Translations under genes and position numbers: made by a program
Shown here: positions 16,606 through 50,018 of the stretch, one piece after another
How positions within the stretch are numbered: position 1 is the stretch's first letter
How the letters are laid out: every line of letters begins with the position of its first letter
Source of the DNA: an uncultured Candidatus Binatia bacterium
GTDB lineage: Bacteria > Desulfobacterota > Binatia > UBA9968 > JAJDTQ01
DNA length: 64,000 nucleotides
Reading direction: 5' to 3'
Assembly (NCBI GenBank): GCA_958295985.1
Contig: OY282432.1
Location: 3,928,517-3,992,516, forward strand
Notes under the pieces: model-generated
The model's input: only the letters and a program-made list of their open reading frames with translations
Database searches by the model: none
What the model was told of the DNA's origin: nothing

Positions 16606-16937
16606 AGGACGGACACCCCTTCGTGTTCCACGGCTTGCTGAAAGGGGAAGCCGCGTCTCTTCCGGTCCTCCCATTCTTCCTGGGTGTAGGCGAGAATCGA
16701 CGGCACGGCATCGGACACCACTGCCAACTCGTATCCGATCTCCCGCAATGGAAGCTTGAGGTGGTCAGTACCATCCTTGACCACGAGAAGTACGTCGAGG
16801 TCGCTGTCTTCTCGGGCATCACCGCGCGCCTTGGAGCCGTATATGACCATGCGCAAGACCGTGCCGGGGTGCCGTTCGTCGAGCACCTTTCGGTATTCGT
16901 CCAGCCATGTTTGTTCTTCGGGGTGAAGCGTCAGCAT
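16602..16937 (-). CDS. Minimal nucleotidyltransferase (MNT/MntA-like, Pol-beta superfamily)
   Basis: This is the last 111 aa of ORF 16602..17801: MLTLHPEEQTWLDEYRKVLDERHPGTVLRMVIYGSKARGDAREDSDLDVLLVV..., carrying the GS-x9-12-DxD NTase motif. Upstream of ATG 16937 the ORF is Arg/Pro-rich junk antisense to the nitrilase gene. Confidence 0.8.
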   Translation of the reverse strand: MLTLHPEEQTWLDEYRKVLDERHPGTVLRMVIYGSKARGDAREDSDLDVLLVVKDGTDHLKLPLREIGYELAVVSDAVPSILAYTQEEWEDRKRRGFPFQQAVEHEGVSVL

Positions 16938-17062
16938 TGTTCTACACCTTGACATCGTATACCTGTGACGTGTCGTTGCCGAAAATGTCGATGACCTTCC
17001 CCAAGGCGTCCTGTGCTCGTGAACCGGGCCTTGACCCTCCGCCCCTTGACGGGATTCAACGG

Positions 17063-34830: not shown

Positions 34831-36213
34831 CTAAAGGAAGTCCTCCAACCGGACCCGGTCCGCGCCCATGGGTTGCAGACGCTCGAACTCGAACCGTCGC
34901 GCGGGATCGCACTCCGGCGGTTTGGTGGCGTCGATCATCACCTTGCCGCCCACACGGTGCCAGCCGGGCGCACCCGGAGCACCCACCTCCCGGCACGAGG
35001 GGTCCATGGCATGGACCTTGGCTCCCGGTATGGTGATGATGTCCTCAGCCGGATTCACCCGGGTGGAGATGGCCCACAGGACGTCGGCGTAGTTGAAGAT
35101 GTCCACGTCCTCGTCCACCGCGATGGCCACCTTGGGATGCTGGTACTCGCTCGACAGCGCCGCCATGAGTACGTTTCTGGCCTCGCCGTAGTAGCGGGCG
35201 TTCATCTGCACGACGATGCCGAAGATGCCCGGCAGCGCCAGCACGTTCTTGACCTGGGCGCCGCCGCCGACGCTCCGTATTCGGCGGAGGATCTGGGCCG
35301 ACATGGGGACCTTGTGATAGACGCAGCCCTCGACCTCGGCGCCGTTCTGGATGTTCTTGAATATGGCGTCGCCCCGCATGGTCACGGCGTTGATCCGGAA
35401 CACCGGGTTCTGTCCCGCCCCGGCCAGATAGTAGTCCTGGAACTCGCTGAAGGGGCCTTCCTCCTCGCGCACGTGGGCGAGGATCTCACCCTCCAGCACC
35501 ACTTCCGCCTGGGCCGGCACCTCCATGTCGATGGTCTCGCACTTCACCAGCTCCACTTCTTCCTGCAGCAGTCCCGAAGCGATATCGAGCTCGTCCGTAC
35601 CGTAGTCCGTCGTGGTGGCGGCGGCGAAGTAATACATGGGATGGTGGCCGATCATCACGGCCACGGGCATGCTCTCACCCTTGGTCTCGTGCTTCTGGTA
35701 GTTGGCCCAACTGTGGCGCGGGTAGAGCAGGATGCCGGTTCTGCGGGGACCCTTCAACTGGAGCCGGTGGAAGCTCATGTTGCGATGGCCCGTGTCGGGG
35801 TCCTTGGAGATCATCAAGCCGGCAGAAATGAAGGGGCCGCCGTCCCGGACGCCGCACTGGTGGATGGGCATCTTCGTGATATCCACTTCATCGCCGGTGA
35901 ACACGCGTTCCTTCACTGGACCCGTGGACACCAGGCGGGTCGCGCCGCTCTTTCCGGTCCGTGTGACGAACTCGGGCACCATCTCGTTGCGGTCGCAGCC
36001 AAAGGCCAGCGGCGCCAGCCGCACGTCGCCCGGCGCCTGCCCGAGACAACGCCAACCCGGGAACCCCGCGAGGTTGTCGAACAACAACGCGCGTTCGCCG
36101 GACTGCCGCAACAGCGCCCCCATCTGCGTCCGCGGATCCACCGGCTTGGAAATGGTGTCGAGCACGCCGGCGCCGCGCAACTGGTCGATCCAGGTGCGTA
36201 TATCCTTCTTCAT
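34831..36213 (-). CDS. UbiD-family (prenylated-FMN-dependent) reversible decarboxylase
   Basis: ORF 460 aa reading MKKDIRTWIDQL...GPFISAGLMISKDPDTGHRNMSFHRLQL...EGPFSEFQDYY.... No ubiX-like gene is present in the window. Confidence 0.9.
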   Translation of the reverse strand: MKKDIRTWIDQLRGAGVLDTISKPVDPRTQMGALLRQSGERALLFDNLAGFPGWRCLGQAPGDVRLAPLAFGCDRNEMVPEFVTRTGKSGATRLVSTGPVKERVFTGDEVDITKMPIHQCGVRDGGPFISAGLMISKDPDTGHRNMSFHRLQLKGPRRTGILLYPRHSWANYQKHETKGESMPVAVMIGHHPMYYFAAATTTDYGTDELDIASGLLQEEVELVKCETIDMEVPAQAEVVLEGEILAHVREEEGPFSEFQDYYLAGAGQNPVFRINAVTMRGDAIFKNIQNGAEVEGCVYHKVPMSAQILRRIRSVGGGAQVKNVLALPGIFGIVVQMNARYYGEARNVLMAALSSEYQHPKVAIAVDEDVDIFNYADVLWAISTRVNPAEDIITIPGAKVHAMDPSCREVGAPGAPGWHRVGGKVMIDATKPPECDPARRFEFERLQPMGADRVRLEDFL

Positions 36214-36281
36214 AACTTGTTCGCCGTTCGGAAGTCATTGCCACCCGGCGCGTGGGGCGCGCCGGGTGGCGGTCGGACAGG

Positions 36282-37385
36282 CTATTTTTTCTTGCGGGCC
36301 AGGAGCGAGGGGATGTACTCGTTCTTGAGGTAGTCCCATCCCGGCGAAGGCTGGAGCATGACCTTGACGATCTTGTCCACGTCCGTGCCGCGGATGTAGT
36401 CCAGCTTGAGCCCGAAGAGTCGCTCCCACTCCTTGATATAGGCGGGGTCGGAGTACATCTTGTCGAAGGCGGCCCGTATGGCTGCCACACGGTCCGCGGG
36501 CGTGCCCGGCGGTAACACCAACGTACGGTTCAGGGTCCGCATGGTGGGACCCGTGAGCTTGTACGCCTCCCAGGCCGGACCCGACGGAGCCTTGCCCTTT
36601 ACCTGCTTGTAGACTTCCTCGAAGGTGGGTATGTCCGTGCCCGGGGAACGGATGACCTTTCCCTCGGGGGTCAGCACGCCGCCCTGCCAGATGGCGATGG
36701 CCACACCCTCCTGGATCGGTCCGTAGTAGCGTCCGCCGGACCCGAGCACGTGATGCAGCCCGGTGCCGCCGACGTACGAGACCTCACCCGACAGGAAAGC
36801 CAAAGCCATCTGGGCGGTGCCGGGGTAACCCACCGCATAGGTGTAGCCCTTGATGCCCAACAGGTCGAGCCCGATGACGTCGTTCAGAAAAGACGGGCCG
36901 GTGATGGAACGTCCGGAAACCGCGATCTTCTTGGGATCGATCCTGGTCAGCTCGACGCCGGTCTTGACCTTGAGGAAGTCCCGGACGATGGCCGCGGAGG
37001 CGCCGCTGGTGCCGTAGACCGCCGGCATCTTGGCCAGGTCGTAGTTGGGCTTGGGATCGTTCAGGGCCTGGCTGCCCAGGTGGGATGTGCCCATGATGGA
37101 CCAGGTGAGGCCGTCCTTCCTGGCCTTGTTGGCGATATAGGCGCCATGAATGAGGCCCGCCGCTCCGGGCATGTTGATCTTGACCACCTTCTTGGGCATG
37201 CCGGGAAGGTACTTGCCGATCCACCGGCCGATGAGCCGGCCTTCGGTGTCATGCCCGCCGCCGGGCGAATATCCGGAGAGGATCTGGATCCTCTTGCCTT
37301 CGGTGAAGGCCTGCGCCGAGCCCAAGGCGAGAACCCCCAACACGGCACAAAAAATCAGAAACACGGAAACCCTGCGTATGATCAT
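36282..37385 (-). CDS. tctC: Tripartite tricarboxylate transporter substrate-binding protein (TctC/Bug family), copy 1
   Basis: ORF 367 aa with signal peptide MIIRRVSVFLIFCAVLGVLALGSAQA. The motif ILSGYSPGGGHDTEGR... is the Bug-family motif. Confidence 0.85.
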   Translation of the reverse strand: MIIRRVSVFLIFCAVLGVLALGSAQAFTEGKRIQILSGYSPGGGHDTEGRLIGRWIGKYLPGMPKKVVKINMPGAAGLIHGAYIANKARKDGLTWSIMGTSHLGSQALNDPKPNYDLAKMPAVYGTSGASAAIVRDFLKVKTGVELTRIDPKKIAVSGRSITGPSFLNDVIGLDLLGIKGYTYAVGYPGTAQMALAFLSGEVSYVGGTGLHHVLGSGGRYYGPIQEGVAIAIWQGGVLTPEGKVIRSPGTDIPTFEEVYKQVKGKAPSGPAWEAYKLTGPTMRTLNRTLVLPPGTPADRVAAIRAAFDKMYSDPAYIKEWERLFGLKLDYIRGTDVDKIVKVMLQPSPGWDYLKNEYIPSLLARKKK

Positions 37386-37436
37386 GAGATTCCTCCCTTT
37401 CGAGACGGGATGTGACGCCTTCCGCTCGCCCGGGTG

Positions 37437-38522
37437 CTACTGGGCGTTGGCAAACTTGCGAAGATGGGCCTGCCACTCGGAGGGCGCCATGGTTTCATCG
37501 CGGATCTTCTCCGCCTCTTTCGGTGTGACGAGAACCGGGGCGAGCTTCTGGCCGAAGACCCTCTCCCAATCCTTGACGAAGCCCGGGTCTTTCGCCATCT
37601 TGGCGACCCCCTCACGCAACTCCGTGACCTTGGCCGCGGCGGTGCCCGGCGGCAGCACCAGGGTCCGGGTCAGCTTGGCCATTCCGAGACCGATGGCGCG
37701 CCAGGACTCCCAGTCCACTCCGGAGGGATCCTTGCCGTGGACCTCCCTGTACACTTCCAGCAGTGTCGGCACGTCACCCTTCACGGTTTCGGAACGTGTG
37801 ATGGTCCCGTCATCCTTGAGGATGCCGCTCTGCCACATGGGGAAGACCAGTCCTCGCTTGTGCATGTCCACGAAGGCGCCGCCGCCCACCAGATGGGCAT
37901 CGCTGGCAACGAAGAAACTCGCCTCGTCGCGCTCCATGGCGGCCTTGATGGGCGAAGTGCCCCGATAGGCGCAGACCGCCTTGTAGCCCTCTACGCCCAG
38001 AAGCCGCAACGCCAACTGGCCGCGCAGGCACGAGGAACCCTGCTTGGACCGGCCCGCCAGAGCGATCCTGGACCTGTCCACCTTGGTCATGAACTCCTTG
38101 GCGTTCCTGGCGCCCAGAAAATCCCGGGTGATGTGGACCTGAATGCCGGCGACGGACCAGATGATCGGCATCTTGGAGAGATCGTACTTGACCATTTCCG
38201 GCGGCGCCAGTACCGCCTGGAGCCCGTGGCTGCTGCCGAACAGGCCGATGGTGGTTCCATCAGGCTTCGCCCGGTTGTAGACGAAGGACGACATGATCAT
38301 GCCGCCGGCCCCGGGCATGTTCTGGACGATGACTTTGGGGGTTCCGGGAAGGTACTGACCCAGGTGCCGCGCCATGATGCGGGCCTCGAGATCATGGCCG
38401 CCTCCAGGCGGATAACCGATGAGGATGGTGACATTCCGGGCCGCCTGCGCCGTCGTGACCAACCCCGCAAAGAGCAGAAGAAAGAACAGGGTACACCAAC
38501 TCGCCACTCTCGATCTCTTCAT
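37437..38522 (-). CDS. tctC: Tripartite tricarboxylate transporter substrate-binding protein (TctC/Bug family), copy 2
   Basis: ORF 361 aa with signal peptide MKRSRVASWCTLFFLLLFAGLVTTAQA and the motif ILIGYPPGGGHDLEAR.... Confidence 0.85.
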   Translation of the reverse strand: MKRSRVASWCTLFFLLLFAGLVTTAQAARNVTILIGYPPGGGHDLEARIMARHLGQYLPGTPKVIVQNMPGAGGMIMSSFVYNRAKPDGTTIGLFGSSHGLQAVLAPPEMVKYDLSKMPIIWSVAGIQVHITRDFLGARNAKEFMTKVDRSRIALAGRSKQGSSCLRGQLALRLLGVEGYKAVCAYRGTSPIKAAMERDEASFFVASDAHLVGGGAFVDMHKRGLVFPMWQSGILKDDGTITRSETVKGDVPTLLEVYREVHGKDPSGVDWESWRAIGLGMAKLTRTLVLPPGTAAAKVTELREGVAKMAKDPGFVKDWERVFGQKLAPVLVTPKEAEKIRDETMAPSEWQAHLRKFANAQ

Positions 38523-38696
38523 GATCCGTTTACCTCCTCAACCAGGGACCCATCCGTCCGAACGCAAACGGGCCGAGGACTCCAGTTCACCCGAGATCCT
38601 CAGCCCGTTCGCTGTTGACGGCCGCTCCTTCCGGAATCGGCCCGCATCGAGAGTGTCGCTGGCGCGAGCCCAGGGACGCTCCTTCCGCACGAAACC

Positions 38697-39098
38697 CTAT
38701 TTCTTCATCGGCTTGGGAATCATCAGCTTCGACGAGGCCAGCATGTTCCCGTCCGCGTCCACCAGCTCGACCATGTGTTCGCCGGGCTTCAGGAGCCGCT
38801 TGATGGTCCGGCCTCGAATTCCCCATGTCGAGGACACCATGCCCTTGTCGTCCGCCTTCTCGATGGCAGGCTTCGCCAGGAAGCTCACGTCCGACAGGAC
38901 GCCGCCCATCGTGGTGCGGAGACCCACTTCTTGGCCGGCCTTCAGGCCCGACGCGGAGATCTTGACCTGCAGTCGGCCCTTCTTCACGTCGCCCACGTCC
39001 AGCATGAGCTTCGCGCCTCCCGCCATCGCGATGGACGACAACAGGAACAATGCTCCCAGGGCTGCTGCCATACCGACAAGCCTTTTCTTTGCAACCAT
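38697..39098 (-). CDS. Small secreted protein of unknown function inside the TTT operon
   Basis: ORF 133 aa with signal peptide MVAKKRLVGMAAALGALFLLSSIAMAGG. The mature ~105 aa look beta-rich and Lys/Gly-rich. I recognise no family. Confidence 0.5.
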   Translation of the reverse strand: MVAKKRLVGMAAALGALFLLSSIAMAGGAKLMLDVGDVKKGRLQVKISASGLKAGQEVGLRTTMGGVLSDVSFLAKPAIEKADDKGMVSSTWGIRGRTIKRLLKPGEHMVELVDADGNMLASSKLMIPKPMKK

Positions 39099-39206
39099 AT
39101 GTTACCTCCCTTTGGTTATTTGTTCCGCTGATCCAGACGGCTCCTTTTATACGTAAGCCTCGCGGCAAATGTCAAGGGCCTTCTCGATCCAAATTCCGGT
39201 CCGCCG

Positions 39207-39743
39207 TCAGATGGGGACCAGACCCGACAAGTACCTCTCCACCAGCCCCAGAATGAACTCCTGAGGCGCGTTAATCAACCCCGGCGGCCACGGGATGTGC
39301 AGCACCATCTCGAAGACGCCGATCATGAATACCAGCATGACCAGCATGTAGATCACGGCAACCTTCCACGACTCGCCCGCCTGAATGGACAGGAAGAGCA
39401 ACAGGAAGATCGGCACGCTCAGGATGAACCCGATGATCCAGATGGACAGGTAGAGGCCGAAGATCCATCCGAAGATGTTGGCCGCGCGCTTGATTACCAC
39501 GGCCGCGGGAACGCTGCGGTCCACCGGCAGGTCCATCATGCCGGCCACGTCCTCGTCACTGCCCTTGCCGCGGAACAGGTCCAGGCCCAGTTGCAGGAAG
39601 CACAGCAGCATGGTGGGAATGCCGATGGTCCACGGGAACAGCCGCGCCTGGTATTGCCACTGCTTCGCGGTAACCACCAGGCCTACCATCAGCAGCAGGA
39701 CGACGACGGTGAACAACGCCGCGGGGTTGATCCTAAGCTTCAT
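39207..39743 (-). CDS. tctB: Tripartite tricarboxylate transporter small membrane subunit TctB-like
   Basis: ORF 39207..39779. The Met at 39743 gives MKLRINPAALFTVVVLLLMVGLVV.... There are four hydrophobic segments. It overlaps the tctA end by 11 nt. Confidence 0.7.
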   Translation of the reverse strand: MKLRINPAALFTVVVLLLMVGLVVTAKQWQYQARLFPWTIGIPTMLLCFLQLGLDLFRGKGSDEDVAGMMDLPVDRSVPAAVVIKRAANIFGWIFGLYLSIWIIGFILSVPIFLLLFLSIQAGESWKVAVIYMLVMLVFMIGVFEMVLHIPWPPGLINAPQEFILGLVERYLSGLVPI

Positions 39744-41265
39744 CGGCTCCCCCGCCTTGTTCGCGCCCGACCTGCGCATCGCGCATCTGTTGCAACTCCT
39801 GCTGTTTGCGCGCGTTGCGGATGCCGTAGTAGAGGCTGACGGCGATGAGCACCATCACGATCATCACGATGGGACGCGTCATCCACCCGGCGCCGTAACG
39901 GCTGATGGAGATGAACAGGTAGTTCTCGATGATGCCGCTCAGCACCAGTCCCAGGATCAGCGGCGGCCGCGGCCAACTGAACCGCTTCATGAACCAGCCC
40001 AGCAGCGAGAAGAACAGCAGCGACCACAGGTCCCCGTAGTGCCGGGTGGCCTGAAACGATGCCAGGAACACGATGACCACCACCAGCGGCGTCAGCAGGT
40101 TGATCCGCACCATGGCGATCTTGGCCAGGGTGTTGGTCAGCAGCATGCACATGATGGTGCCGAAGATGTTGGCGATGGCCAGGCTCCAGATCATCGTGTA
40201 GGTGACCGCCAGGTCCTTGGTGAGCATGGCCGAGCCCGGTGTCAGCCCCTGGATGGTCATGGCCCCCAGCAGCAAGGCCATGGAGGCGCTGCCCGGCACG
40301 CCGAAGGCGATGGTGGGGATCAGCGCCCCGCCCTCCTTGGCGTTGTTGGCCGCCTCCGGCGCCAGCACACCGCGCACGTCGCCGGTCCCGAAGGTCTCGT
40401 TGGCGCCCTTCTCGGTCTGTATGGCGTGACCGTAGGCGAACCAGTCCACCACCGACGCGCCGAGCCCGGGGATGGCGCCGACGAAGACGCCGACCACGCC
40501 GCAGCGCAGCACCAGTAACCAGTTGCGGAAGGTATCCCGGATCCCCGTCATGACCCCCTTCAGCCGCTCCTTGGGCACGTCCGCGATGCGCGTCCCCCGG
40601 ATGGTCAGGTCGACGATCTCGGGGATGGCGAAGACGCCCAGCGCCACCGGGACCAGCGGCACGCCGTCCCAGAGGTAGAGTTGTCCGAACACCCAGCGGA
40701 GCACACCCGTCTGGGGGTCCATGCCCACCATGCCCACGCACAGTCCGATGGCCCCCGCGATGAGCCCTTTCACCGGCGCGTTGCCGCTCAGGACGGCGAC
40801 CATGGAGATGCCCAGCAGACCCAGCATGAAGAACTCGGGAGAGCCGAACGCGAGCACGATGGGACGGAGCACGGGGATCGAAAGCGCCAGCACCAGCGAC
40901 CCGAACACGCCGCCCAGGAGCGATGCCATGTAGGCGCCGCCGAAGGCTCGACCGGCCTCGCCTTTCTTGGCCATGGGGTGGCCGTCGAGAATGGTGGCCT
41001 GGGACGCCGAGGTGCCGGGGACGCCGAAGAGAACCGAGGGAATGGTGTCGGAGGTGCTCGTCACCGAGATCAGGCCGATCATGATGGCGAACGCCTCGAA
41101 GGAGTCCATGTCGAAGGTGAAGGGCAGGAGGATGGCAAGGCCGACGAGACCTCCAAGGCCGGGTATCGCACCCAACGCCAGGCCCATGAGCACGCCGATG
41201 AACAGATACCCCAGCCGGGTCGGAACCAGGAGGTTCTCAAATGCCACGGTGGCGGCTTCCAGCAT
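39733..41265 (-). CDS. tctA: Tripartite tricarboxylate transporter large permease TctA
   Basis: ORF 510 aa reading MLEAATVAFENLLVPTRLGYLFIGVLMGLALGAIPGLGG..., a typical TctA N-terminus with multiple TM segments. Confidence 0.9.
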   Translation of the reverse strand: MLEAATVAFENLLVPTRLGYLFIGVLMGLALGAIPGLGGLVGLAILLPFTFDMDSFEAFAIMIGLISVTSTSDTIPSVLFGVPGTSASQATILDGHPMAKKGEAGRAFGGAYMASLLGGVFGSLVLALSIPVLRPIVLAFGSPEFFMLGLLGISMVAVLSGNAPVKGLIAGAIGLCVGMVGMDPQTGVLRWVFGQLYLWDGVPLVPVALGVFAIPEIVDLTIRGTRIADVPKERLKGVMTGIRDTFRNWLLVLRCGVVGVFVGAIPGLGASVVDWFAYGHAIQTEKGANETFGTGDVRGVLAPEAANNAKEGGALIPTIAFGVPGSASMALLLGAMTIQGLTPGSAMLTKDLAVTYTMIWSLAIANIFGTIMCMLLTNTLAKIAMVRINLLTPLVVVIVFLASFQATRHYGDLWSLLFFSLLGWFMKRFSWPRPPLILGLVLSGIIENYLFISISRYGAGWMTRPIVMIVMVLIAVSLYYGIRNARKQQELQQMRDAQVGREQGGGADEA

Positions 41266-41300
41266 ACGGACTCCCTTCTGCCTAGGTAAAATCGACGTGG

Positions 41301-41329
41301 GATATATCGAGGTCCGGACAGGCTGTCAA
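41301..41329 (-). promoter_or_regulatory. Sigma70-like promoter for the tctA operon: TTGACA-N17-TATATC
   Basis: The minus strand reads cggTTGACAgcctgtccggacctcgaTATATCccacg. The -35 (41329..41324) overlaps the TGA stop of the Hsp70-like gene. The -10 lies at 41306..41301, ~35 nt upstream of the tctA ATG (41265). Confidence 0.4.
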
Positions 41330-43101
41330 CCGTCGCCGCAAGCCGGATCATTCGAAGCCCGCCCACACACGGCACATGGCTCATAGTAGAGCCTTTCGTG
41401 TACCTGCCTCTCGGGCGGCCGCCGCCGTGAATCAAAGTAGCCCGGGTCGTACTGATGGAGAAACTCGCCCGGCACAAGCGATAGATCTTCCCGGTCAGAT
41501 ACATTAGCTCGCACACGGATCGTAGCTAATGGTGACGTGGCTGACTCCGGCTCCTTCAGGCCAGGTGTATCATCGCCATCATCGCGAACAGATCCGACAG
41601 GCTCGCTGTCGGGCGGGAACTTGAGCCCAAATTCAAGGTCGTGAACTTCGCAACAGTCCTCGTCCTTCCGGTTTAGTGAACGTGCGTGGGCTTTTAGAAT
41701 GAGGTCCTCGTTGATCTGAATATCGAGTTCCAGTCGTTCGTCGAACGCATGCGCCTTCGAATCGACTTTGACCGTGACGTTCTCCAAGTGAACTCTGGGC
41801 TCACTGCGCAACACCATTGGTCCCGGACGCGTCGGAGCGCAAAGCTGGAATTTGGCCATCCCGTCGCGTGGATCGGTGCAGTAGAGATGCAGTGTCTGAG
41901 TCTGCTCCTTTCCCTGCTTGGGCATTGGGGTTCCGGCCTTGACAACCTGCAGATATGAATTGCGCGCCAGCTCCAATTCGATACTCTTCGCCAACTGGAG
42001 ACCTACCTCGTCCGCCGCGATCCAAGCCGCTCCACCTGCAATCAAAGTCGTCGTGCTGTCAGGGATCTCGACTCGCTCGGGGCCAAACAATTCGTGGAGC
42101 CGACGTTCAACGGCAGGCATATTGGACATACCTCCCGTCGCCACGCAAAGCACGATCTGCTCCGGCGAGTAAGCAGCATCATCCAGGATGCGCCGGATTC
42201 GCTCAAAACCTTTTTTGAGTAACGGATCAACAATATCTTCAAGCTCACGCTGACTCAACGAACAGTCGAATCCCTCGTCTTCTACGCCCTTGAAGAAGCT
42301 ATCAACGTATATCCTCACGTCGGAACGGCCAGACAAATCGATTTTGGCCCGTTCGCAACGGTCCATCAGGCGCGACATGGCGCCCGGATATTTATCCACA
42401 ATGTCACCAAGAGATCGCTCCTGCCCGATCCGTTGCAAGAGACGATTCATAATAGTTTCATCGAAGACATCGCCGCCGACTTCATCAGTGCCATCGTTCT
42501 TGAGCTGAACTACCATGTCACCCATGACGCGGCAAAGTGTCAAGTCCAATGTACCACCACCCCAGTCGGCTACCAGGATGACCTTCCCATCGTAACGGCG
42601 TCTCATCTTCGGGAATCCCCGTACTCGAAACAAACCATAGAGCGCCGCCAGGGGCTCATGGACGAACTGCACGATACCTAGTCCAGCAAGATTGAACGCT
42701 TCCCGAAGCGCCTGCCGCTGAACGCCTCCCATACCTACCGGGATTGTAACCACCGCCCGGGAGATTTCTCCAATATCACGGCTGCTATCCTGTGCCTGTT
42801 GATAAACGTGTCGGACAACGTCGGCGACCATGTCCATCGGGCGCTTTTCTATCCCCTCGACGAACACGCTGTCCCGACCCAGGTACATCTTCGGCGACCG
42901 GACGATGTTTCCTTGAATGCCTAACCCGGCTTGCGCGAGACGTTCCTTTGCCTCCCGCCCGCAAATCGTCTGCGCACCCTCATAGCAAACCACCGATGGA
43001 ATGGGCAGATTCCGGTCATCAAGGAAGTTTATCGGCCGGTTTCCGCGAACAATGGAGATAAGGCTGTTTGTTGTCCCAAAATCGAATCCGAGCACGTTCA
43101 T
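41326..43101 (-). CDS. Orphan Hsp70-family ATPase with a non-canonical C-terminus (protein C of the candidate system)
   Basis: ORF 591 aa. NBD motifs: GFDFGTTNS (phosphate-1), NIVRSPKMYLGR, HEPLAALYG, DWGGGTLDLT (phosphate-2) and ATGGMSNMPAV (adenosine). A beta-sandwich-like segment follows. There is no helical lid or EEVD; instead there is an acidic linker and a terminal CAVCGRASNDPAC. G+C is lower than in the flanking genes. Confidence 0.85.
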   Translation of the reverse strand: MNVLGFDFGTTNSLISIVRGNRPINFLDDRNLPIPSVVCYEGAQTICGREAKERLAQAGLGIQGNIVRSPKMYLGRDSVFVEGIEKRPMDMVADVVRHVYQQAQDSSRDIGEISRAVVTIPVGMGGVQRQALREAFNLAGLGIVQFVHEPLAALYGLFRVRGFPKMRRRYDGKVILVADWGGGTLDLTLCRVMGDMVVQLKNDGTDEVGGDVFDETIMNRLLQRIGQERSLGDIVDKYPGAMSRLMDRCERAKIDLSGRSDVRIYVDSFFKGVEDEGFDCSLSQRELEDIVDPLLKKGFERIRRILDDAAYSPEQIVLCVATGGMSNMPAVERRLHELFGPERVEIPDSTTTLIAGGAAWIAADEVGLQLAKSIELELARNSYLQVVKAGTPMPKQGKEQTQTLHLYCTDPRDGMAKFQLCAPTRPGPMVLRSEPRVHLENVTVKVDSKAHAFDERLELDIQINEDLILKAHARSLNRKDEDCCEVHDLEFGLKFPPDSEPVGSVRDDGDDTPGLKEPESATSPLATIRVRANVSDREDLSLVPGEFLHQYDPGYFDSRRRPPERQVHERLYYEPCAVCGRASNDPACGDG

Positions 43102-43102
43102 T

Positions 43103-44203
43103 TCAACTATGACCTCTATCTCCTCGTAGCCGCTCTCTCTCGGATTTCAGGCCGTCAATAACACGCTCCGCGTGGTCGACCATGACATGGACCTTGGGAG
43201 GCTCCCGTAGCAGTGCACGAAGCCCTTCGTCGAGCAACGACAATTCCGTCGTCAATCGACCTATGACCCCACCCCGCAGGTTTTCATAGTCATCTTGGAA
43301 ATGGGCTCTGTTGTCGGCATGCTCTTTTCGTTCCCGTTCAAGTTCCTTCCGGAACGTGTCGACTTCAGCTTGTGAGGTCGCCAGCTTGGCCTGAATTTTG
43401 GCTAACGCTTCTTCCAACTCCTCCACTCGCTTCGTAGCGCGTGATTCCCGTATTTGAGCAGCGTCGGCGCGCTCGCTCTGCTCAAGAGCCTGTCTTCGCA
43501 GTATCCCAGCCGCAATCTGTGCAGCCGCAGGGTCCCGTGTGCTCATCAGCACACGAAGCCTGCCCGCATCAGTGTTTACCCGTCCTACCGCGGGCTCCCA
43601 CAGGCTCTCCGCTAGGTAGTGATGGACGCGCTCGACATGTACCTCACGCATCATCCTAAACCAGAGCAACAGGCATTTCACCGCATTCTCCCTGCATTGC
43701 CCCCTTTCCTTGGCAATCAGCTTGCCACTATCCGGCCAAGACAATTCCCCGTAGTCCCGAGAAGCCAGCGCCTCGATCGCCGGACCTTCCACCTCGGCTA
43801 GCGATTCCTCTGTGAACGCGGGGTGCCTCCGGAGCACCTCGTGGACGAATTTGCCTATTTGGTCAGTAACAGGCGATGGATCGATCCCAATGCCAAGCAG
43901 CGTCAGTTGAAGTGTCCGTTTAAGCGTTCGATCTGCTACTGTCTGGTTAAGGATATCATCGCTCTCCTGCAAGCCTAACGCCCGGGCGCCGCACATTGCT
44001 GAAAGTTCCTTCTTCGTCAGTGCCTTGCGTTTGAATGTACCGGCGTAAACGGCACGGAGCAATTGTTCTACGCTCTCGATAGGCGGAATCTTTATGTGCG
44101 CCTTACGTTGGACGGCATCGATGGCCGCCGTAACCCCCCGAGCAGAAGAGTCTGCCTCCAACGGGTCACGGTTCTTGGCAGGCATTGGGTTGGTGTCGTT
44201 CAT
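43103..44203 (-). CDS. Helical/coiled-coil protein of unknown function (protein B of the candidate system)
   Basis: ORF 43103..44245. ATG at 44203 lies 8 nt after the upstream TAG. The stop junction is TGAaATG with the Hsp70-like start. The C-terminal third is heptad-like and charged (...RVEELEEALAKIQAKLATSQAEVDTFRKELERERKEHADNRAH...). I recognise no family. Confidence 0.6.
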   Translation of the reverse strand: MNDTNPMPAKNRDPLEADSSARGVTAAIDAVQRKAHIKIPPIESVEQLLRAVYAGTFKRKALTKKELSAMCGARALGLQESDDILNQTVADRTLKRTLQLTLLGIGIDPSPVTDQIGKFVHEVLRRHPAFTEESLAEVEGPAIEALASRDYGELSWPDSGKLIAKERGQCRENAVKCLLLWFRMMREVHVERVHHYLAESLWEPAVGRVNTDAGRLRVLMSTRDPAAAQIAAGILRRQALEQSERADAAQIRESRATKRVEELEEALAKIQAKLATSQAEVDTFRKELERERKEHADNRAHFQDDYENLRGGVIGRLTTELSLLDEGLRALLREPPKVHVMVDHAERVIDGLKSERERLRGDRGHS

Positions 44204-44211
44204 CGTGGTCC

Positions 44212-45309
44212 CTAGGAATGCTTCCGAATCATGGACTCCGCCCATGTCTCCAGTCCGGGCGAGTTATGAAGTTCCTTAGCATGTTGAAGTGCTCTCTCGC
44301 CATTGCCGGAAGCGGTGTATATTTCGGCCAGAAGAATGTGTAACTTGACGCGATCATAACTCGCGATAACTCGACGCAGAAAAGTCTCCATATCCGCCAC
44401 CTTCTGAGATAGATCATCAATCTGCAGAACTGCCCAACCGACAATCTTTTCAGTTTCCCAGTCCGTTACCGAGGCATCCAGGTTACCGGGCACAGCAATG
44501 CCATCGGTCCCTACGTCAGTACCACTCGTTGAACTTTCCATCCAAGCCGCATATCTTGCGGCCGCACGGCCAACGCGCACACCGTCCGCCAGACGCGCCG
44601 CATCCTTGAAGTGATTGAAATGAAACTCGATCAGGCCGCCAATCATCCTTGCCAATGGCCGCTCGTAACCGGCCAGATCCTCAGCGGCCTTGTTGAACTT
44701 GTGAACATATTCATCATACGAAAGCAAAGAATCGGGAGCCTTTTCCTTCGCACGCACGCCGTACAGGTAGGCGCAAATACCATCGCAATAGCCGATAGCG
44801 GAACGGCATCCCGACGTGCCAGAGATGAATTCTTCGACGGCACGAATGTCGAGACGTCCCTTGGAAGCTGTGCTCTTGAACTGATCCTCAATGGCTATGA
44901 GATCTTCTTCTGAAGCAATTCGAAAATCCAACGTAAACTCTTTCCGGCCGCCAGCATTGATCAGCACTAAACGACATACATCGGATTTCACTTGAGCAAG
45001 GCGGACAGGAACTGCGCAGACATTCATCTTTTCGCCGTTGAGAACGGCTTGGTGGCAATTCTCCACGCACACATCTTCGGCGGTGATTGGCCGTGTGACT
45101 CGACGCGGGGCCGCGCCCAACTCCTGGCCCTGGAGAAACAGAGTGGGGTAAGTCAGTGGGTGCCTTGCAAATCGATGCGTGTGTAGCTCATCGCTAGACG
45201 GAAAGACTTCGGTGCACTGTACGCATGGGAACTCTGGATGCGTCGGCTGGTAGTCTTCCAGACCGATATCCATATGCTGATCCATGTACCCGGTGTGCCA
45301 GAATCCCAT
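44212..45309 (-). CDS. Protein with an N-terminal classical C2H2 zinc finger and a helical C-terminal region (protein A of the candidate system)
   Basis: ORF 365 aa. Residues 29-50 read CVQCTEVFPSSDELHTHRFARH, i.e. C-x2-C-x3-F-x5-L-x2-H-x4-H. The C-terminus is TPR-like (...LLAEIYTASGNGERALQHAKELH...). The start is uncertain because the SD before ATG 45309 is weak. Confidence 0.6.
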   Translation of the reverse strand: MGFWHTGYMDQHMDIGLEDYQPTHPEFPCVQCTEVFPSSDELHTHRFARHPLTYPTLFLQGQELGAAPRRVTRPITAEDVCVENCHQAVLNGEKMNVCAVPVRLAQVKSDVCRLVLINAGGRKEFTLDFRIASEEDLIAIEDQFKSTASKGRLDIRAVEEFISGTSGCRSAIGYCDGICAYLYGVRAKEKAPDSLLSYDEYVHKFNKAAEDLAGYERPLARMIGGLIEFHFNHFKDAARLADGVRVGRAAARYAAWMESSTSGTDVGTDGIAVPGNLDASVTDWETEKIVGWAVLQIDDLSQKVADMETFLRRVIASYDRVKLHILLAEIYTASGNGERALQHAKELHNSPGLETWAESMIRKHS

Positions 45310-45384
45310 TCCTACGTCACCGATTCCACGGCCCGGGAAGATCTACGTACAGTGACCACGTGTGCTTCTCAAGGCCGAAATGAC

Positions 45385-45654
45385 TTACGCTATCCGTCTC
45401 GCCGCGACAGCCTTGGCCAGATCATGGGTCGCCTGCAAGTTCATCCAGAGCTTCGGCGACGTGCCCAGGGTCGCGGCAAGGTCGAGCGCCGCCTCCACCG
45501 TAATGCCTCGCTTTCCTCGTATCAGCTCATTCAGGCGCGCCCGGCTCCAGCCGATCTTCTGTGCGAAAGCTGCCTGGCTCATTCCCATGGGCTCAAGAAA
45601 CTCCTCGAGCAGCATTTCGCCCGGATGGAAGGGATTCTTCGGTTGTTTATCCAA
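45385..45654 (-). CDS. higA: HigA-type antitoxin / XRE-family HTH protein
   Basis: ORF 89 aa reading ...HPGEMLLEEFLEPMGMSQAAFAQKIGWSRARLNELIRGKRGITVEAALDLAATLGTSPKLWMNLQ, the canonical HigA/VapI HTH. Confidence 0.8.
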   Translation of the reverse strand: MDKQPKNPFHPGEMLLEEFLEPMGMSQAAFAQKIGWSRARLNELIRGKRGITVEAALDLAATLGTSPKLWMNLQATHDLAKAVAARRIA

Positions 45655-45666
45655 CGCCCTGCCTCC

Positions 45667-45957
45667 TTAGCGATAGTCGATGATCCGCACGCCACGGGCG
45701 TGGCCCCCACTCCATTGAAACACCAACCGCCACCGGTCATCGATCCTGATGGAACGGAACCCTTTCCAGGTTCCCTTGAGACTCTCCAGCCGGTTACCGG
45801 AGGGCATTCTCAGATCTTTCAGGTCTGCTGCATCGTGGAGATACAATAGCTTGCGTCTGGCCGTCCGGCGTAGCTCTGGAGGAAAGAACCGTGTTGCCTT
45901 GCTTCGCTTGTCGTTGAACAGATCCTCCGCGAGAGCATTGCCAAACTCCAGGATCTT
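45667..45957 (-). pseudogene. higB: HigB-family (RelE/ParE superfamily) toxin homologue lacking a canonical in-frame start codon
   Basis: Not in the ORF track. Hand translation of the open frame 45966..45670 gives CAN-KILEFGNALAEDLFNDKRSKATRFFPPELRRTARRKLLYLHDAADLKDLRMPSGNRLESLKGTWKGFRSIRIDDRWRLVFQWSGGHARGVRIIDYR*. An in-frame TAA lies at 45969..45967. The codon where HigB proteins have Met (M-I-x-x-F) is AAG. The first ATG/GTG/TTG in frame would give only 58 aa. Confidence 0.55.
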
Positions 45958-46158
45958 GTTAGCACATTATCGGAATACCGAAACAAGGCCAAGCGAAGCC
46001 GCCGCCGGGCAACCGCGGGACCATTCCGCTATGGACCGGGCGCCCCCGGCGTCCCCGTTGCGGGATTTCAGCAAAAATACTATACCCGGCCTACTATCCG
46101 AACAAGGGCGCCCTCCGAGCCGGGGATGCCCCGTAGCCTCCCGGAAAGGACCGTCACC

Positions 46159-47067
46159 ATGGGCAACCTAGGCATCTGCTTCGTCAACCCCGCCCCGCAG
46201 ATCGAGCCGGGCTACGTCACCGCCATGGCGCGGAAATGCGACCAGGCGGGCCTGCATTCATTCTGGACCATCGATCGCATCGCCTATGACAATCTCGAGG
46301 CCCTGACCGTGCTGGCGGCCGTGGCGGGCGCCACCGAACGCATCCGGCTGGGGACGTCGGTGCTGCTGTCGGCGCTGCGGCATCCGGCGCTGCTGGCCAA
46401 GACCGTGGCCACCCTGGATTTCCTGTCCAACGGCAGGATGACCCTGGGCGTCGGCTTCGGCAGCCGGGAGAACGATTTCAGCTCCGTGGAGGTTCCCTGG
46501 GAGCACCGGGGGAGCCGGGCCGAGGAGTCTCTCGGTCTCATGAAGCGGCTTTGGACCGAGGAGGAGGTGGAGCACCACGGCCGGTTCTTCGACCTCCACA
46601 GCACCCGCTTCGGCCCCGAGACCGTCCAGTCGCCTCATCCCCCCATCTGGATGGGAGGGACCGCGGACACCGTTCTCAAGCGGGTCGGGCGGCTGGCCGA
46701 CGGCTACATCTGCGGCAGCAACGCCGTACACGACTTCAGCGCGGTCTGGGACAAGATCAGCGGCCACGCCCGGGCCGCAGGACGGGACCCCGACAGCATC
46801 GAGAAGGCCGGGCTCACCTTCATCGCCATCGACGACGACAAGAGCAAGGCGGTGGAGGCGTGCAGCAACTATCTGATTCGCTACTACGGCAAGGTGCGGA
46901 TGGACGTGGAGAAGTACATGCTGGTGGGGAGCGCCAACGCGTGCGCCGACGGCATCAACCGGATCTTCGCCGGCGGACTTCAGACCCTGATCATCGGTCT
47001 GGCCATCGCCGACCTCGGACAACTGGACACGTTCGTCGAGAAGGTGCTGCCGCAGGTGCAGGGATAG
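46159..47067 (+). CDS. Luciferase-like monooxygenase (LLM) family oxidoreductase, possibly F420-dependent
   Basis: Lies inside ORF 46126..47067 with ATG at 46159. It reads ...FWTIDRIAYDNLEALTVLAAVAGATERIRLGTSVL...GRMTLGVGFG...PPIWMGG.... Confidence 0.85.
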   Translation: MGNLGICFVNPAPQIEPGYVTAMARKCDQAGLHSFWTIDRIAYDNLEALTVLAAVAGATERIRLGTSVLLSALRHPALLAKTVATLDFLSNGRMTLGVGFGSRENDFSSVEVPWEHRGSRAEESLGLMKRLWTEEEVEHHGRFFDLHSTRFGPETVQSPHPPIWMGGTADTVLKRVGRLADGYICGSNAVHDFSAVWDKISGHARAAGRDPDSIEKAGLTFIAIDDDKSKAVEACSNYLIRYYGKVRMDVEKYMLVGSANACADGINRIFAGGLQTLIIGLAIADLGQLDTFVEKVLPQVQG

Positions 47068-47123
47068 ACGAGCGCACGGCCGGCCGCGGAAACCGCATCC
47101 CGCCGGCCCCCGCGGGTCCACTT

Positions 47124-47744
47124 CTATAGCGGCGCCGGCCCCGCGAAATCCTTGATGTAAGGCAGTTTTTCCGCGGTCTTGTCCACCTCGGCCATGTTGT
47201 TGAGCAGCAGCGCGGTGGAGTCCCACGAGCCCGTGGTCAGGGCGTTGCGGTGGCCTTCACTGATGTCGATGTCGATGTCCGTGCCATCGGGCAGGCGGAT
47301 CTTCCGGGCGTCGAGGTCCACGGTGAGCTCCACCTCGGGGTCGGACTCCACCAGCGTCATGAGCTTTCCGATGTCCTCCGGCGAGGCCGTCACCGTGGGC
47401 AGGCCCAGCAGCACGCTGCTGCCGGCGAAGATCGGACCGAAGGATTCCCCGACGACGGCCTTGATGCCCCAGCGGTACAGGGCCTGCGGCGCGTGCTCCC
47501 GCGACGACCCGCAACCGAAGTTGCGGTTCACCAGCAGGACCTCGGCGCCCTGGAAGCGGGCCTCGTTGAACGGGTGCTCCACCGGGTTGCCGTCGGCGTC
47601 GTAGCGCTCGTCGAAAAACGGGTACTCGCCCATGCGATTGAAGGTGATCTCCTTGAGGTAACGGGCCGGAACGATTCGATCGGTATCGATATCGTGCCCC
47701 CGCACCACCACCGCCCTGCCGCTTACCTGTTTGATCTCGTTCAT
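47124..47744 (-). CDS. leuD: 3-isopropylmalate dehydratase small subunit
   Basis: Lies inside ORF 47124..47891, starting [31 protein letters not shown]...[12 protein letters not shown].... There is an ATGA overlap with the leuC stop. Confidence 0.9.
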
Positions 47745-49153
47745 GCCGGCCTCGATCCGTTGTATTCGCGCACGTCCACGACCTTGCCGTTCAAGGCGGC
47801 CGCGGCCACCATGGCGGGGCTCATCAACAGAGTCCGCCCGCCCGGGCTCCCCTGGCGGCCGATGAAGTTGCGGTTCGACGAGGACGCGCACACCTCACGG
47901 CCCTTGAGCTTGTCGGGGTTCATGGCCAGACACATGGAGCAGCCGGCCTCCCTCCATTGGAAGCCCGCTTCGGTGAAGACACGGTCGAGCCCCGCCGCCT
48001 CCGCCTGTTTCTTGACCTCGACGGAACCGGGCACCACCAGCGCTCTCACGCCCTCGGATACCTTTCTACCCTCGGCAACGCGCGCCGCGGCCACGAGGTC
48101 CGAGAACCGCGAGTTGGTGCAGGAACCGATGAACGCCACGTCGATGGAGGTCCCGAGAATCGGCGTCCCCGGCGTCCAGCCCATGTGCTCGTAGGCCTTC
48201 TCGACCGTCTTGGGATCTTGCAGCTCTTCGGGGCGCGGGAGGTTCTCCAGCACTCCCAACGCCTGTCCGGGATTGATGCCCCAGGTGACCGTGGGCTCGA
48301 TGGCCGAGCCGTCGAGGTCCACGACGTCGTCATAGCCCGCGTCCGGATCCGACGCCATGGAGCGCCAGTACGCCACCGCGCGATCGAAGGCTTCGCCCTT
48401 GGGTGCGAACTGCCGTCCCAGCAAGTAGTCGAAAGTGGTCTGATCGGGGTTGACGTAACCCACCAGCGCGCCGCCCTCGATGCTCATGTTGCAGACGGTC
48501 ATGCGTTCTTCCATGTTCATCCGGTCCAGCACCGGGCCGCCGTATTCGTACGCGTACCCCTTGCCGCCGCCGACTCCGAGCCGCCGGATGATGGTGAGGA
48601 TCACGTCCTTGGCGTGTACCCCCAGAGGGAGGCTGCCGTTGACGTTGATGCGCCGCACCTCGAGCCGGTCCATGGACAGGGTCTGGGTCGCCAGCACGTC
48701 CCGGACCTGGGTGGTGCCGATGCCGAAGGCCAGGGTCCCGAAGGCGCCGTGGGTGCTGGTGTGGCTGTCGCCGCAGGCCAGCGTCATCCCCGGCTGGGTG
48801 AGCCCCAACTGCGGACCGATGACGTGCACGATGCCTTGCCGGGTACTCTCCAGACCGTAGAACTCGATGCCGAAATCGCGGACGTTCCTTTCCAGCGCCG
48901 TCATCATCGCCTCGGCCTGTTCGTCGGCAAAGGGCCGGGCATGGGTATCCGTGGGGACAATGTGATCGGCAGTGGCGAAGGTCCGCTGGGGATAGGCGAT
49001 GGAAAGCCCCCGTTCCCGCATCATGTCGAACGCCTGCGGGGTGGTGACCTCGTGCACCAGATGCAATCCGATGAAGAGTTGGGTCTGCCCGGTGGGGAGC
49101 GTGGTCACCGCATGGGCGTCCCAGACCTTGTCATAAAGTGTGCGTTCGGACAT
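47741..49153 (-). CDS. leuC: 3-isopropylmalate dehydratase large subunit
   Basis: ORF 470 aa: an aconitase-family protein with Cys ligands (...[14 protein letters not shown]..., ...IGSCTNSR..., ...CSMCLAMN...). Confidence 0.95.
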
Positions 49154-49156
49154 GGA

Positions 49157-49981
49157 TCAACGTTCTCCTTGCGGGGAATCATAGCCAGCGGCCTGGGTGA
49201 ATTCAAGCGAAGGCGAGCCCGGAACGCCGCGGTCCGGCGGCGGGAAGGAGTCGTAGCATACTTCCACGAGAAACAGGCCCCGTGCGGGCGCGGTGGGGCC
49301 GGCCAGCGTACGGGCGCGGCTGTCGATCAATGCCGGAAGATCGCCGGGGTCCCGCTCGCCCAGCCCCGTCTGCACCAGCGTGCCGACGATGTTCCGCACC
49401 ATGTGCCGGAGGTAGCCGGTGGCTTCGATGCGATAGACCCAGTGATCCTCCCACCGGAACAGCTCGTTGCGGTAGACCCGCCGGACCGCGGTGGCGGCGC
49501 CGCACCCGGCGGCCCGGAAGCACGAGAAGTCGTGCTCCCCTTCCAACGCCGCCAACGCCTCGCGCATGGCGTCGACGCGCAACGGCCTGGGTACATGCCA
49601 TGAATACCGCTTGTTGAACACCGACCGCCAGGGGTGGTTCCACAGCCGGTACTCGTAGACGCGCCTCCTCGCGTCCCTGCGGGCATCGAACGAGGGGGAC
49701 GCGGCCTCCACCGCCCTGATGGTGATGTCGTCCGGGGTGAGGGCGTCGAGACCCCGCCGGATTCGCGTCAGGTCCCGGTCGTCGGGACACGCAAAATTCG
49801 CCACCTGACCCAGCGCGTGAACGCCGGCGTCGGTTCGTCCGGACCCCTGTATCCGCACCCGGTGCTTCAACAGCACGGCCAAGGCGTCCTCCAGGATTCC
49901 CTGGACCGTGGACCCGCCCGGCTGCACCTGCCATCCGCGGTAGTCGGTGCCGTCGTACTCGACGGTCATTCTGACGTTCAT
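49157..49981 (-). CDS. truA: tRNA pseudouridine(38-40) synthase
   Basis: ORF 274 aa reading MNVRMTVEYDGTDYRGWQVQP...GSGRTDAGVHALGQV.... Confidence 0.9.
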   Translation of the reverse strand: MNVRMTVEYDGTDYRGWQVQPGGSTVQGILEDALAVLLKHRVRIQGSGRTDAGVHALGQVANFACPDDRDLTRIRRGLDALTPDDITIRAVEAASPSFDARRDARRRVYEYRLWNHPWRSVFNKRYSWHVPRPLRVDAMREALAALEGEHDFSCFRAAGCGAATAVRRVYRNELFRWEDHWVYRIEATGYLRHMVRNIVGTLVQTGLGERDPGDLPALIDSRARTLAGPTAPARGLFLVEVCYDSFPPPDRGVPGSPSLEFTQAAGYDSPQGER

Positions 49982-50018
49982 AAGACCCCGCGGACCGGCG
50001 TCTCCACCGGTCGGTGGA

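Follow-up and report, generated by a model that had tools for sequence, protein, structure and literature searches.

A classical C2H2 zinc finger in a bacterial protein encoded with an Hsp70-like ATPase in a three-gene cassette

We analysed a 64,000-nucleotide (nt) stretch of the genome of an uncultured Candidatus Binatia bacterium, referred to here as the window, and focused on the protein encoded by an open reading frame (ORF) of 365 residues on its minus strand (44212..45309). This protein, protein A, was confirmed to carry a genuine classical C2H2 zinc finger by its spacing, its hydrophobic core, its predicted beta-beta-alpha fold, and its conservation in the family. Its gene is the first of three, A-B-C, of which the third encodes an Hsp70-like ATPase. 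A preliminary description of the protein had recorded the finger and left out this context, in which protein A heads a conserved three-gene cassette found in defence islands. On balance, we consider it probable that protein A is the adaptor of an undescribed, mobile, Hsp70-based anti-phage or anti-plasmid module, a defence function that we infer from gene context only.

Residues 29-50 of protein A (45160..45225, minus strand) are CVQCTEVFPSSDELHTHRFARH. In the ORF translation they read exactly as C-x2-C-x3-F-x5-L-x2-H-x4-H, the pattern that had been claimed for them, and this single finger lies near the N terminus of a 365-residue protein, as described. The feature as a whole covers residues 27-51 (45157..45231, minus strand), with C29, C32, H45, and H50 as the ligands and F36 and L42 as the core. 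When protein A was shuffled 300,000 times, the spacing C-x2-C-x12-H-x3-5-H appeared in 216 shuffles (7e-4), and the same spacing with F/Y and L in register appeared in one (3e-6). Among the 248 stop-to-stop frames of at least 100 residues in the window, the finger pattern was found in the protein A frame alone. This rarity in shuffled sequences and the single occurrence in the window indicate that the motif is not a chance match.

The motif was also conserved among homologues. In an alignment of 27 sequences, the members of which were 43-73% identical to the query, C29, C32, L42, H45, R46, H50, and P51 were invariant. A larger set of 238 family members of at least 330 residues was gathered by two independent searches, and the strict C-x2-C-x12-H-x4-H spacing with all four ligands was kept in 233 of them. 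In two of the five exceptions the last His was replaced by Cys; the others were a protein with C-x4-C spacing, one in which the finger was absent, and one in which an N-terminal extension shifted the motif beyond the scanned stretch. The aromatic core position was F in 175 and Y in 42 of the 233 relatives (F/Y in 217), and the Leu core position was likewise L in 217. In the AlphaFold2 (AF2) model, the finger formed two strands (residues 27-28 and 35-36) and a helix (residues 39-49), with predicted local distance difference test (pLDDT) values of 76-85 for the block. Spacing, core, predicted fold, and conservation thus agree with the earlier assignment to the TFIIIA/Kruppel type with conserved Phe and Leu. 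The finger of protein A would be expected from these ligands to bind zinc.

In Pfam, the window protein matched zf-C2H2_6, zf-C2H2_4, and zf-C2H2 over residues 27-50 with 16.1, 16.6, and 14.5 bits, respectively (E 0.011-0.051). Scores of 14.5-16.6 bits are under the Pfam gathering scores of 25-27 and count against the finger, and the window protein is formally sub-threshold. Single C2H2 fingers seldom reach these cut-offs. Among the 27 aligned members, zf-C2H2_4 was matched in 24, zf-C2H2 in 20, and zf-C2H2_6 in 19 at E<=0.1, with a best value of 2.2e-6, and a precomputed match to PF13912 was present in 5 of 120 relatives among the matches listed. When PDB sequences were searched with the family profile, the 18 matches below E 0.1 were solely to C2H2-finger proteins, the top one being 2i13 (6.8e-5, across profile positions 10-66). 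By the Pfam cut-off the profile check formally fails for the one protein, and this failure is outweighed by the conservation, the fold, and the matches in relatives.

Apart from these scores, the reading of the motif as a chance match, or as a stretch upstream of the true start, could draw on the public gene call for protein A, which has 353 residues and starts at Met13, 12 residues late. This call loses the N-terminal octapeptide MGFWHTGY (residues 1-8; 45286..45309, minus strand) and retains the finger, so that even the short annotation includes it. No segment of protein A is more conserved than the octapeptide, which was identical in 156 of 238 relatives. Because it is conserved in relatives, the ATG at 45309 is taken as the true start, with the finger inside the protein; the true start does not lie downstream of residue 50. 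The chance-match and wrong-start readings were thus ruled out by the conservation and the shuffles, and we regard their probability as negligible.

Protein A had been called otherwise unrecognisable outside the finger, a view that did not hold, since a beta-sandwich and a TPR-like domain were modelled behind the N-terminal peptide and the finger. The AF2 model of the whole protein had a mean pLDDT of 84.2 and a predicted template-modelling score of 0.73, and residues 1-18 were disordered in this monomer model (pLDDT <50). The beta-sandwich domain (residues 55-130; 44920..45147, minus strand) showed AF2 strands across residues 56-130 with pLDDT 83-94. Residues 52-130 aligned with Ig-like domains in VIA-align at Z 6.2-6.5, a level of generic similarity. 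The all-helical domain (residues 134-365; 44215..44910, minus strand) was assigned as TPR-like from AF2 and VIA-align, with Z 6-8.3 to LpoA-N, Fis1, and TPR proteins, values that helical repeats often reach. The motif GYCDGICAYLYGVLAKE (about residues 173-189) in this domain is the predicted surface for docking on protein C, and the invariant residues of the domain are Y174, G177, C179, Y181-G184, and K188. Among the 27 relatives, Pfam matched TPR_2 in 3 and TPR_4 in 2, only at E 0.03-0.05. The information content over the query and 235 relatives averaged 3.61 bits/position for the octapeptide, 2.45 for helices 155-207, 2.28 for the finger, and 2.03 for the whole protein.

A word-indexed search gave 276 relatives of protein A at E<=1e-3, and an exhaustive search gave at least 500, of which 160 were at E<=1e-30. 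Protein A had no match in Foldseek against the PDB at E<=1e-3 and none in PHROGs, and NCBIfam gave nothing meaningful for protein A or protein B. Fused forms of protein A of 640-2000 residues were not found, which is weak evidence with the tool used. In the ESM Atlas, the leads for protein A were all below 0.9. One was a Methanobacteriota cluster of a 363-residue 'C2H2-type domain-containing' protein with TPR_11 in 34% of its members (score 0.85), and this archaeal cluster may be a counterpart of protein A; plant DUF627/DUF629 scored below 0.85.

Gene B (43103..44245, minus strand) encodes a protein of 380 residues. Its start may be the ATG at 44245, which overlaps gene A by 34 nt, or the in-frame ATG at 44203, which is 8 nt past the gene A stop, and the variable and disordered N termini of the homologues leave this choice ambiguous in the alignment. 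In the AF2 model of protein B (pLDDT 85.8; alignment of 29 sequences), the N terminus was disordered and residues 59-234 formed a helical domain. One long helix (239-346, about 108 residues) followed, and the C-terminal motif was conserved. Protein B had no Foldseek match at E<=1e-3, and its matches in Pfam and PADLOC were only sub-threshold ones of the coiled-coil type (PADLOC E>=0.001). Its similarity to GrpE was confined to the coiled-coil stretch, with E values of 0.15 in Pfam and 0.04 in NCBIfam, far under the cut-offs. Neither protein A nor protein B matched the J-domain or DnaJ family in Pfam at E<=1.

Gene C (41326..43101, minus strand) encodes an Hsp70-like ATPase of 591 residues with a nucleotide-binding domain (3-364), a linker, and the first substrate-binding-like strands. 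It matched Pfam HSP70 (PF00012) at 2.9e-46 over residues 3-364, and its top PDB match was DnaK (7.1e-46), covering the nucleotide-binding domain only. When protein C was aligned with the DnaK of the same genome by hhalign, residues 2-397 were paired with DnaK 3-417 at a probability of 99.8, so that the interdomain linker and the initial strands of the substrate-binding domain were covered as well. The segments DFGTTNS, HEP, DWGGGTLD, and TGGM and the residues K71 and E149 were invariant. The phosphate-1, phosphate-2, and adenosine motifs of an actin-fold domain and the catalytic Lys, Glu, and Thr are in place, and protein C, which has the architecture of Hsp70, is probably active as an ATPase. 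A helical lid was not detected, and residues 398-591 matched no profile. The protein ends in a cysteine knuckle, C576-x2-C579-x8-C588-x-C590 (41332..41376, minus strand), in which C576, C579, and C588 were invariant and C590 was present in at least 90% of the 29 aligned sequences. This knuckle occupies the place of the canonical Hsp70 lid and tail and is a probable second zinc site of the machine encoded by the cassette. In the ESM Atlas, the tail gave weak leads only, to Hsp70 fragments (0.85) and DUF5716_C. An unnamed Hsp70-like family in PHROGs matched protein C. The NCBIfam scores of protein C were at most 146 bits, far below the equivalog cut-offs of 331-1019, and it was rejected as an orthologue of DnaK, HscA, or HscC.

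The cassette resembles the DnaK-DnaJ-GrpE triad in having three genes, one of them for an ATPase of the Hsp70 fold in which the interdomain linker and the catalytic motifs are retained. The long coiled coil of protein B parallels GrpE and the presumed zinc-binding module of protein A parallels DnaJ, a likeness that is superficial. Unlike the triad, the cassette gave no J-domain match, and its Hsp70-like protein has a cysteine knuckle at the C terminus and no helical lid; DnaJ carries CxxCxGxG repeats as its zinc module, whereas that of protein A is a C2H2 finger. A canonical DnaK is encoded separately in the genome of the window. A canonical DnaK/DnaJ/GrpE paralogue set was rejected on the lack of a J-domain match in Pfam, the sub-threshold GrpE similarity, and the presence of this DnaK.

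The conservation of the cassette was investigated in 36 loci taken from contigs of one genome per species. The three genes were in the order A-B-C on the same strand in 35 loci, and the 36th was cut at the contig end. In the 30 loci for which it was listed, the gap between genes B and C ranged from -8 to +19 nt. Across loci, protein C was the most conserved (46-73% identity), followed by protein A (28-56%) and protein B (25-48%). The cassette was present in at least nine phyla: Pseudomonadota (including Gamma- and Betaproteobacteria), Binatia, Gemmatimonadota, Latescibacterota, Cyanobacteria, Acidobacteriota (Vicinamibacterales), Nitrospirota (Nitrospirales), Planctomycetota (Phycisphaerae), and Actinomycetota. 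The genome of the window has a single copy. Of 24 other genomes of the same genus, one had the cassette, at only 50% identity, and it was not found in 16 genomes from elsewhere in the order. It is also present on two conjugative Paenarthrobacter plasmids, where RefSeq labels its genes only as 'hypothetical protein' and 'Hsp70 family protein'. A tblastn search of phage records gave no match to protein A. The A-B-C cassette is a horizontally mobile accessory module with a patchy distribution among relatives.

On plasmid pA of Paenarthrobacter ureafaciens (L041, 9001-10919, plus strand), an IS3-family insertion truncates gene A, and a 446-residue hypothetical gene abuts the Hsp70-like gene with no gap. 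Its neighbours there are two DUF262 genes, a GIY-YIG nuclease gene, and a DEAD/DEAH helicase gene.

The contact between proteins A and C was examined by complex prediction. The full-length proteins gave a score of 0.67 (median of three runs), and the best control gave 0.00. Of 157 solved complexes, 116 reach the mark used for this score, as do 2 of 215 mismatched pairs; this calibration was made with other alignments and is only roughly valid for A-C. The runs shared at least 83% of their contacts, and the partner pLDDT was at least 79. The predicted interface was formed by residues 91, 110-113, and 155-207 of protein A and residues 164-169, 296-299, 312-314, and 329-343 of protein C; it lies on the ATPase domain of protein C and not on its tail. 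It includes all the invariant residues of the helical domain of protein A given above, and R334, L335, F339, G340, and R343 are invariant on the side of protein C. The models support a docking of protein A on the ATPase domain of protein C through its helical domain and not through the finger. Neither the finger nor the octapeptide is named in the interface, which with this tool is not evidence against their touching protein C; the octapeptide could be a peptide ligand for the substrate-binding-like domain of protein C or for protein B.

Classical C2H2 fingers are a hallmark DNA-binding module of eukaryotes, are rare in bacteria, and are best known as binders of DNA or RNA. The finger of protein A shares with those of eukaryotes (TFIIIA/Krueppel) the C-x2-C-x12-H-x4-H spacing, the F/Y and L core, and the predicted beta-beta-alpha fold. 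It differs from them in that it is single and not part of an array, is acidic to neutral, has a non-ligand surface that is fixed across phyla, and stands in front of a beta-sandwich and a TPR-like domain in a protein encoded by a bacterial operon. It has in common with the Ros/MucR proteins, which are bacterial too, a single Cys2His2 site. The Ros finger has a shorter Cys-His spacing and a larger globular fold, and the Ros/MucR proteins are small stand-alone transcription factors, whereas protein A is a subunit of an ATPase cassette. A Ros/MucR-type regulator was rejected, since no Ros/MucR profile in Pfam matched protein A at E<=1 and the spacing here is x12; the difference from this type that had been pointed out in the preliminary description was thus borne out.

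The surface of the finger was compared with that of DNA-binding C2H2 fingers, which are basic and are variable at the base-reading helix positions -1, +2, +3, and +6. Over 27 residues, the net charge of the finger (K+R minus D+E) averaged -1.0 (standard deviation 1.5, range -6 to +3, n=233). Helix position -1 is a conserved Ser/Thr, +2 is Asp/Glu, and +3 is Glu/Asp. Several residues other than the ligands are nearly fixed, namely R46 (195/233), F47 (206/233), E48 (171/233), and P51 (195/233). Because of the charge, the conserved helix positions, and the fixed residues, sequence-specific DNA binding is a poorer fit than an intramolecular role or the binding of one constant protein, and the most likely task of the finger is a fixed protein contact, not the reading of DNA sequence. 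Of the two roles first proposed for it, the protein contact is therefore favoured, and nucleic-acid binding, which might then involve a constant structure, is less so.

The neighbourhood of the cassette was investigated by comparing 217 greedy-called flank ORFs of at least 150 residues from 35 loci (L017 had no flanks) with PADLOC at E<=1e-10. Matches were obtained for 45 of the 217 ORFs (21%) in 21 of the 35 loci, a generic RtcR-type match in L004 having been dropped from the locus count. For a rough comparison, ORFs were called in the same way in the remainder of the window, and 1 of these 36 matched PADLOC (3%); this control is one region, and greedy calling overlooks genes in high-GC DNA. 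BREX genes were near the cassette in eight loci (L022, L026, L027, L028, L030, L031, L034, and L036), GmrSD in two (L024 and L026), and type I restriction-modification genes in two (L013 and L032). In L018, HmaA is upstream and HmaB downstream of the cassette. The Septu genes PtuA/PtuB are directly upstream in L023, AbiEii and a Fic protein are near the cassette in L012, and an Hhe-like helicase in L009. The gene directly upstream in L029 and L033 encodes a dynamin-like GTPase that ends in a PLD-like domain. The cassette begins 2 nt past pglX in L028, L030, and L034, pglZ comes after gene C in L026 and L034, and the cassette follows brxL in L027 and BrxD/BrxHI in L036. By clade, defence genes were associated with 15 of 19 loci in the more distant clade. 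The PADLOC-DB v2.0.0 contained no model that matched protein A or protein C at E<=1.

In L028 (355-6998, plus strand), from a Zoogloea metagenome-assembled genome, tandem full-length genes for PglX-type methyltransferases (1129 and 1082 residues) lie directly upstream of the cassette. The dynamin-family protein of L029 and L033 (4064-6967, plus strand), from two Betaproteobacteria, is a 967-residue GTPase and PLD-like MIT_C protein encoded 33 nt upstream of the cassette; PADLOC assigns its C-terminal domain to a BrxL variant, and a related fragment is present at the edge of L026 (70-1608, plus strand). The sole PADLOC match elsewhere in the window was a 399-residue ORF (16602-17801, minus strand), the last 105 residues of which matched the PDC-S09 candidate family (5.3e-14).

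Hsp70-like ATPases have been placed in several predicted conflict systems. In the published account of CoCoNuT systems, the Hsp70-like components CnuD/CnuCD have degenerate Walker-A-like motifs (PMC11090510), and the GTPase-tubulin-HSP70 systems are predicted conflict systems with an Hsp70-like ATPase (PMC7159879). Lidless DnaK-like domains have been described in fusion with EACC1-protease modules (PMC12642450), and a general remark in another report states that HSP70-like NTPases can replace STAND NTPases (bioRxiv 10.64898/2026.10.19.760177). As far as these accounts describe them, such ATPases are divergent, often lidless, encoded in defence-type loci, and proposed as sensors or switches, and protein C is alike; unlike the degenerate motifs of CoCoNuT, its motifs are intact. 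The partners here are a C2H2-TPR protein and a coiled-coil protein, unlike those of the conflict systems, and McrBC-type GTPase, tubulin, GAP1-N2 GTPase, caspase-like protease, and EACC1 were found by PADLOC and Pfam in none of the 36 loci. Membership in CoCoNuT was rejected, as neither McrB-like (CnuB) nor McrC-like (CnuC) proteins were among the 217 flank ORFs of the 35 loci or in the window. The cassette uses the same slots, pglX-pglZ and HmaA-HmaB, as BrxU/GmrSD and the PADLOC HEC candidates, and shares loci with GmrSD (L026) and with a HEC-02 pair (L030); we take HEC to stand for 'Hma-embedded candidate'. Unlike GmrSD and these candidates, it has no PADLOC model that matches protein A or protein C. 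A cassette of C2H2, coiled-coil, and Hsp70-like proteins was not found described in the open full-text papers searched, where supplementary tables might name it otherwise, and A-B-C appears to be undescribed.

Several observations weigh against the reading of protein A as the adaptor of a defence module, in addition to the rough calibration of the complex score and the single-region control. The finger without its four ligands averaged 1.9 bits/position, compared with 2.03 for the whole protein, which is only average conservation. The predicted A-C interface does not contain the finger and gives no positive evidence on its partner. Profile and structure searches recognised no nuclease, protease, pore, or other effector domain in protein A, B, or C. 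PADLOC found known defence genes nearby in neither the window, the islet of which has only a toxin-antitoxin pair, nor 14 of the 35 scanned loci, and in the clade nearest to the window protein only 6 of 16 loci had defence genes, one of them weak. Finally, guilt by association would look the same for a self-standing system and for one that assists BREX or Hma.

Three other explanations were compared with the adaptor of a defence module. The finger may be a nucleic-acid-binding module that tethers the Hsp70-like machine, perhaps together with the knuckle of protein C, to DNA or RNA such as invading DNA, replication intermediates, or structured RNA. Classical C2H2 fingers are known for this activity, the cassette occurs with the DNA-targeting BREX, Hma, type I restriction-modification, and GmrSD systems, and protein C ends in a conserved CxxC..CxC knuckle; the CoCoNuT Hsp70-like domains were also argued, in the account cited, to bind RNA (PMC11090510). 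Against this stand the presence of only one finger, its negative mean charge, the acidic residues conserved at helix +2 and +3 with Ser/Thr at -1, and the absence of a conserved basic flanking linker, and we find the tether rather doubtful. The cassette may instead be an accessory of BREX or Hma, acting as an assembly or remodelling chaperone or a regulator, with the stand-alone copies being orphans or having other partners. Its positions 2 nt past pglX, between pglX and pglZ (L026 and L034), after brxL or BrxD/BrxHI, and between HmaA and HmaB would fit this role, as would the missing effector domain. However, BREX genes were missing from the window and, within 7 kb of the cassette, from 27 of the 35 scanned loci, and because GmrSD and the HEC-02 pair, which are unrelated self-contained systems, occupy the BREX and Hma slots too, the slot looks like an insertion hotspot. 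The main text of a comprehensive BREX census mentions neither Hsp70, DnaK, chaperone, nor C2H2 (PMC12839542). An accessory role is accordingly judged unlikely, and the cassette was rejected as a core component of BREX, since BREX genes were within 7 kb in only 8 of the 35 loci and it is not constant with pglZ and brxC.

The cassette may also serve mobile elements as a specialised chaperone or stress module, for instance in folding or maintaining a particular client, with no part in immunity, its location in variable regions reflecting mobility only. In favour of this, protein C has a complete Hsp70 ATPase core with the interdomain linker and the beginning of a substrate-binding domain, the 14 loci without a detected defence neighbour are compatible with such a role, and a stress-response reading was raised by the authors who described the lidless DnaK-like domains (PMC12642450). 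This explanation is opposed by the lack of a J-domain or GrpE match near significance in protein A or B, by the canonical DnaK already present in the genome, by the PADLOC matches in 21% of the flank ORFs against 3% in the control, and by the position of the cassette inside defence operons, in the same orientation as the neighbouring genes and at distances of 2 nt. We regard it as quite improbable.

If the adaptor reading holds, protein A with its zinc-binding finger would be an adaptor or cofactor subunit of an A-B-C machine built around the lidless Hsp70-like ATPase C. The most conserved face of its TPR-like domain would dock on the ATPase domain of protein C, which would leave the finger and the N-terminal octapeptide free. 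The finger would then make a fixed protein contact, for which protein B, the substrate-binding-like domain of protein C, and an invader protein are candidates, and protein C might act as an ATP-driven sensor or switch against phages or plasmids. A more specific proposal, which we put forward tentatively, is an autonomous chaperone-like immune sensor, mechanistically of a new type, in which the lidless ATPase is held by the C2H2-TPR adaptor and the coiled-coil scaffold. The octapeptide and the finger would serve as a pseudo-substrate or bait, and an invader protein would displace the bait and thereby switch the ATPase, with no conventional enzymatic effector.

In the window, the cassette lies in a low-GC islet of about 4.7 kb (41300..46000) that also contains a HigB-like/HigA-like toxin-antitoxin pair (45385..45846, minus strand) directly upstream of gene A on the same strand. 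By Pfam, the islet is bordered by tctA on one side and by a luciferase-like monooxygenase gene on the other. Its GC content was about 53-58%, compared with 64-68% in the flanks, a difference in keeping with mobility. The toxin-antitoxin pair matched HigB-like_toxin (5.7e-11) and HTH_3 (3.4e-12) in Pfam. HigBA homologues were near the cassette in 2 of the 36 loci (both genes in L016, HigB only in L001) and are outside the conserved cassette. The HigB-like frame (45667-45966, minus strand) reads CANKILEFGNALAEDLF.. after a stop codon, and its conserved N-terminal part has no canonical start. The first ATG/GTG/TTG is 40 codons on and gives a 59-residue ORF that covers profile positions 39-83 of 91; judging from the frame, the HigB-like toxin either has a non-canonical start or is in decay. 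No tRNA gene was found in 36000-50000 and no integrase at the islet borders, and a scan for consensus promoters and terminators was not above shuffle expectation.

In at least nine bacterial phyla, the finger of protein A is a fixed feature in a setting other than that of a transcription factor, apparently as a protein module, and it is relevant to where this fold came from and what it first did. The more interesting object is the mobile A-B-C cassette nested in defence loci. If the cassette serves BREX or Hma, it could help explain the assembly or regulation of those multi-protein systems, which are poorly understood. If it is a true immune system, a chaperone-type ATPase would join the STAND, AAA+, and GTPase switches among the NTPases of prokaryotic immunity, in a compact and testable form.

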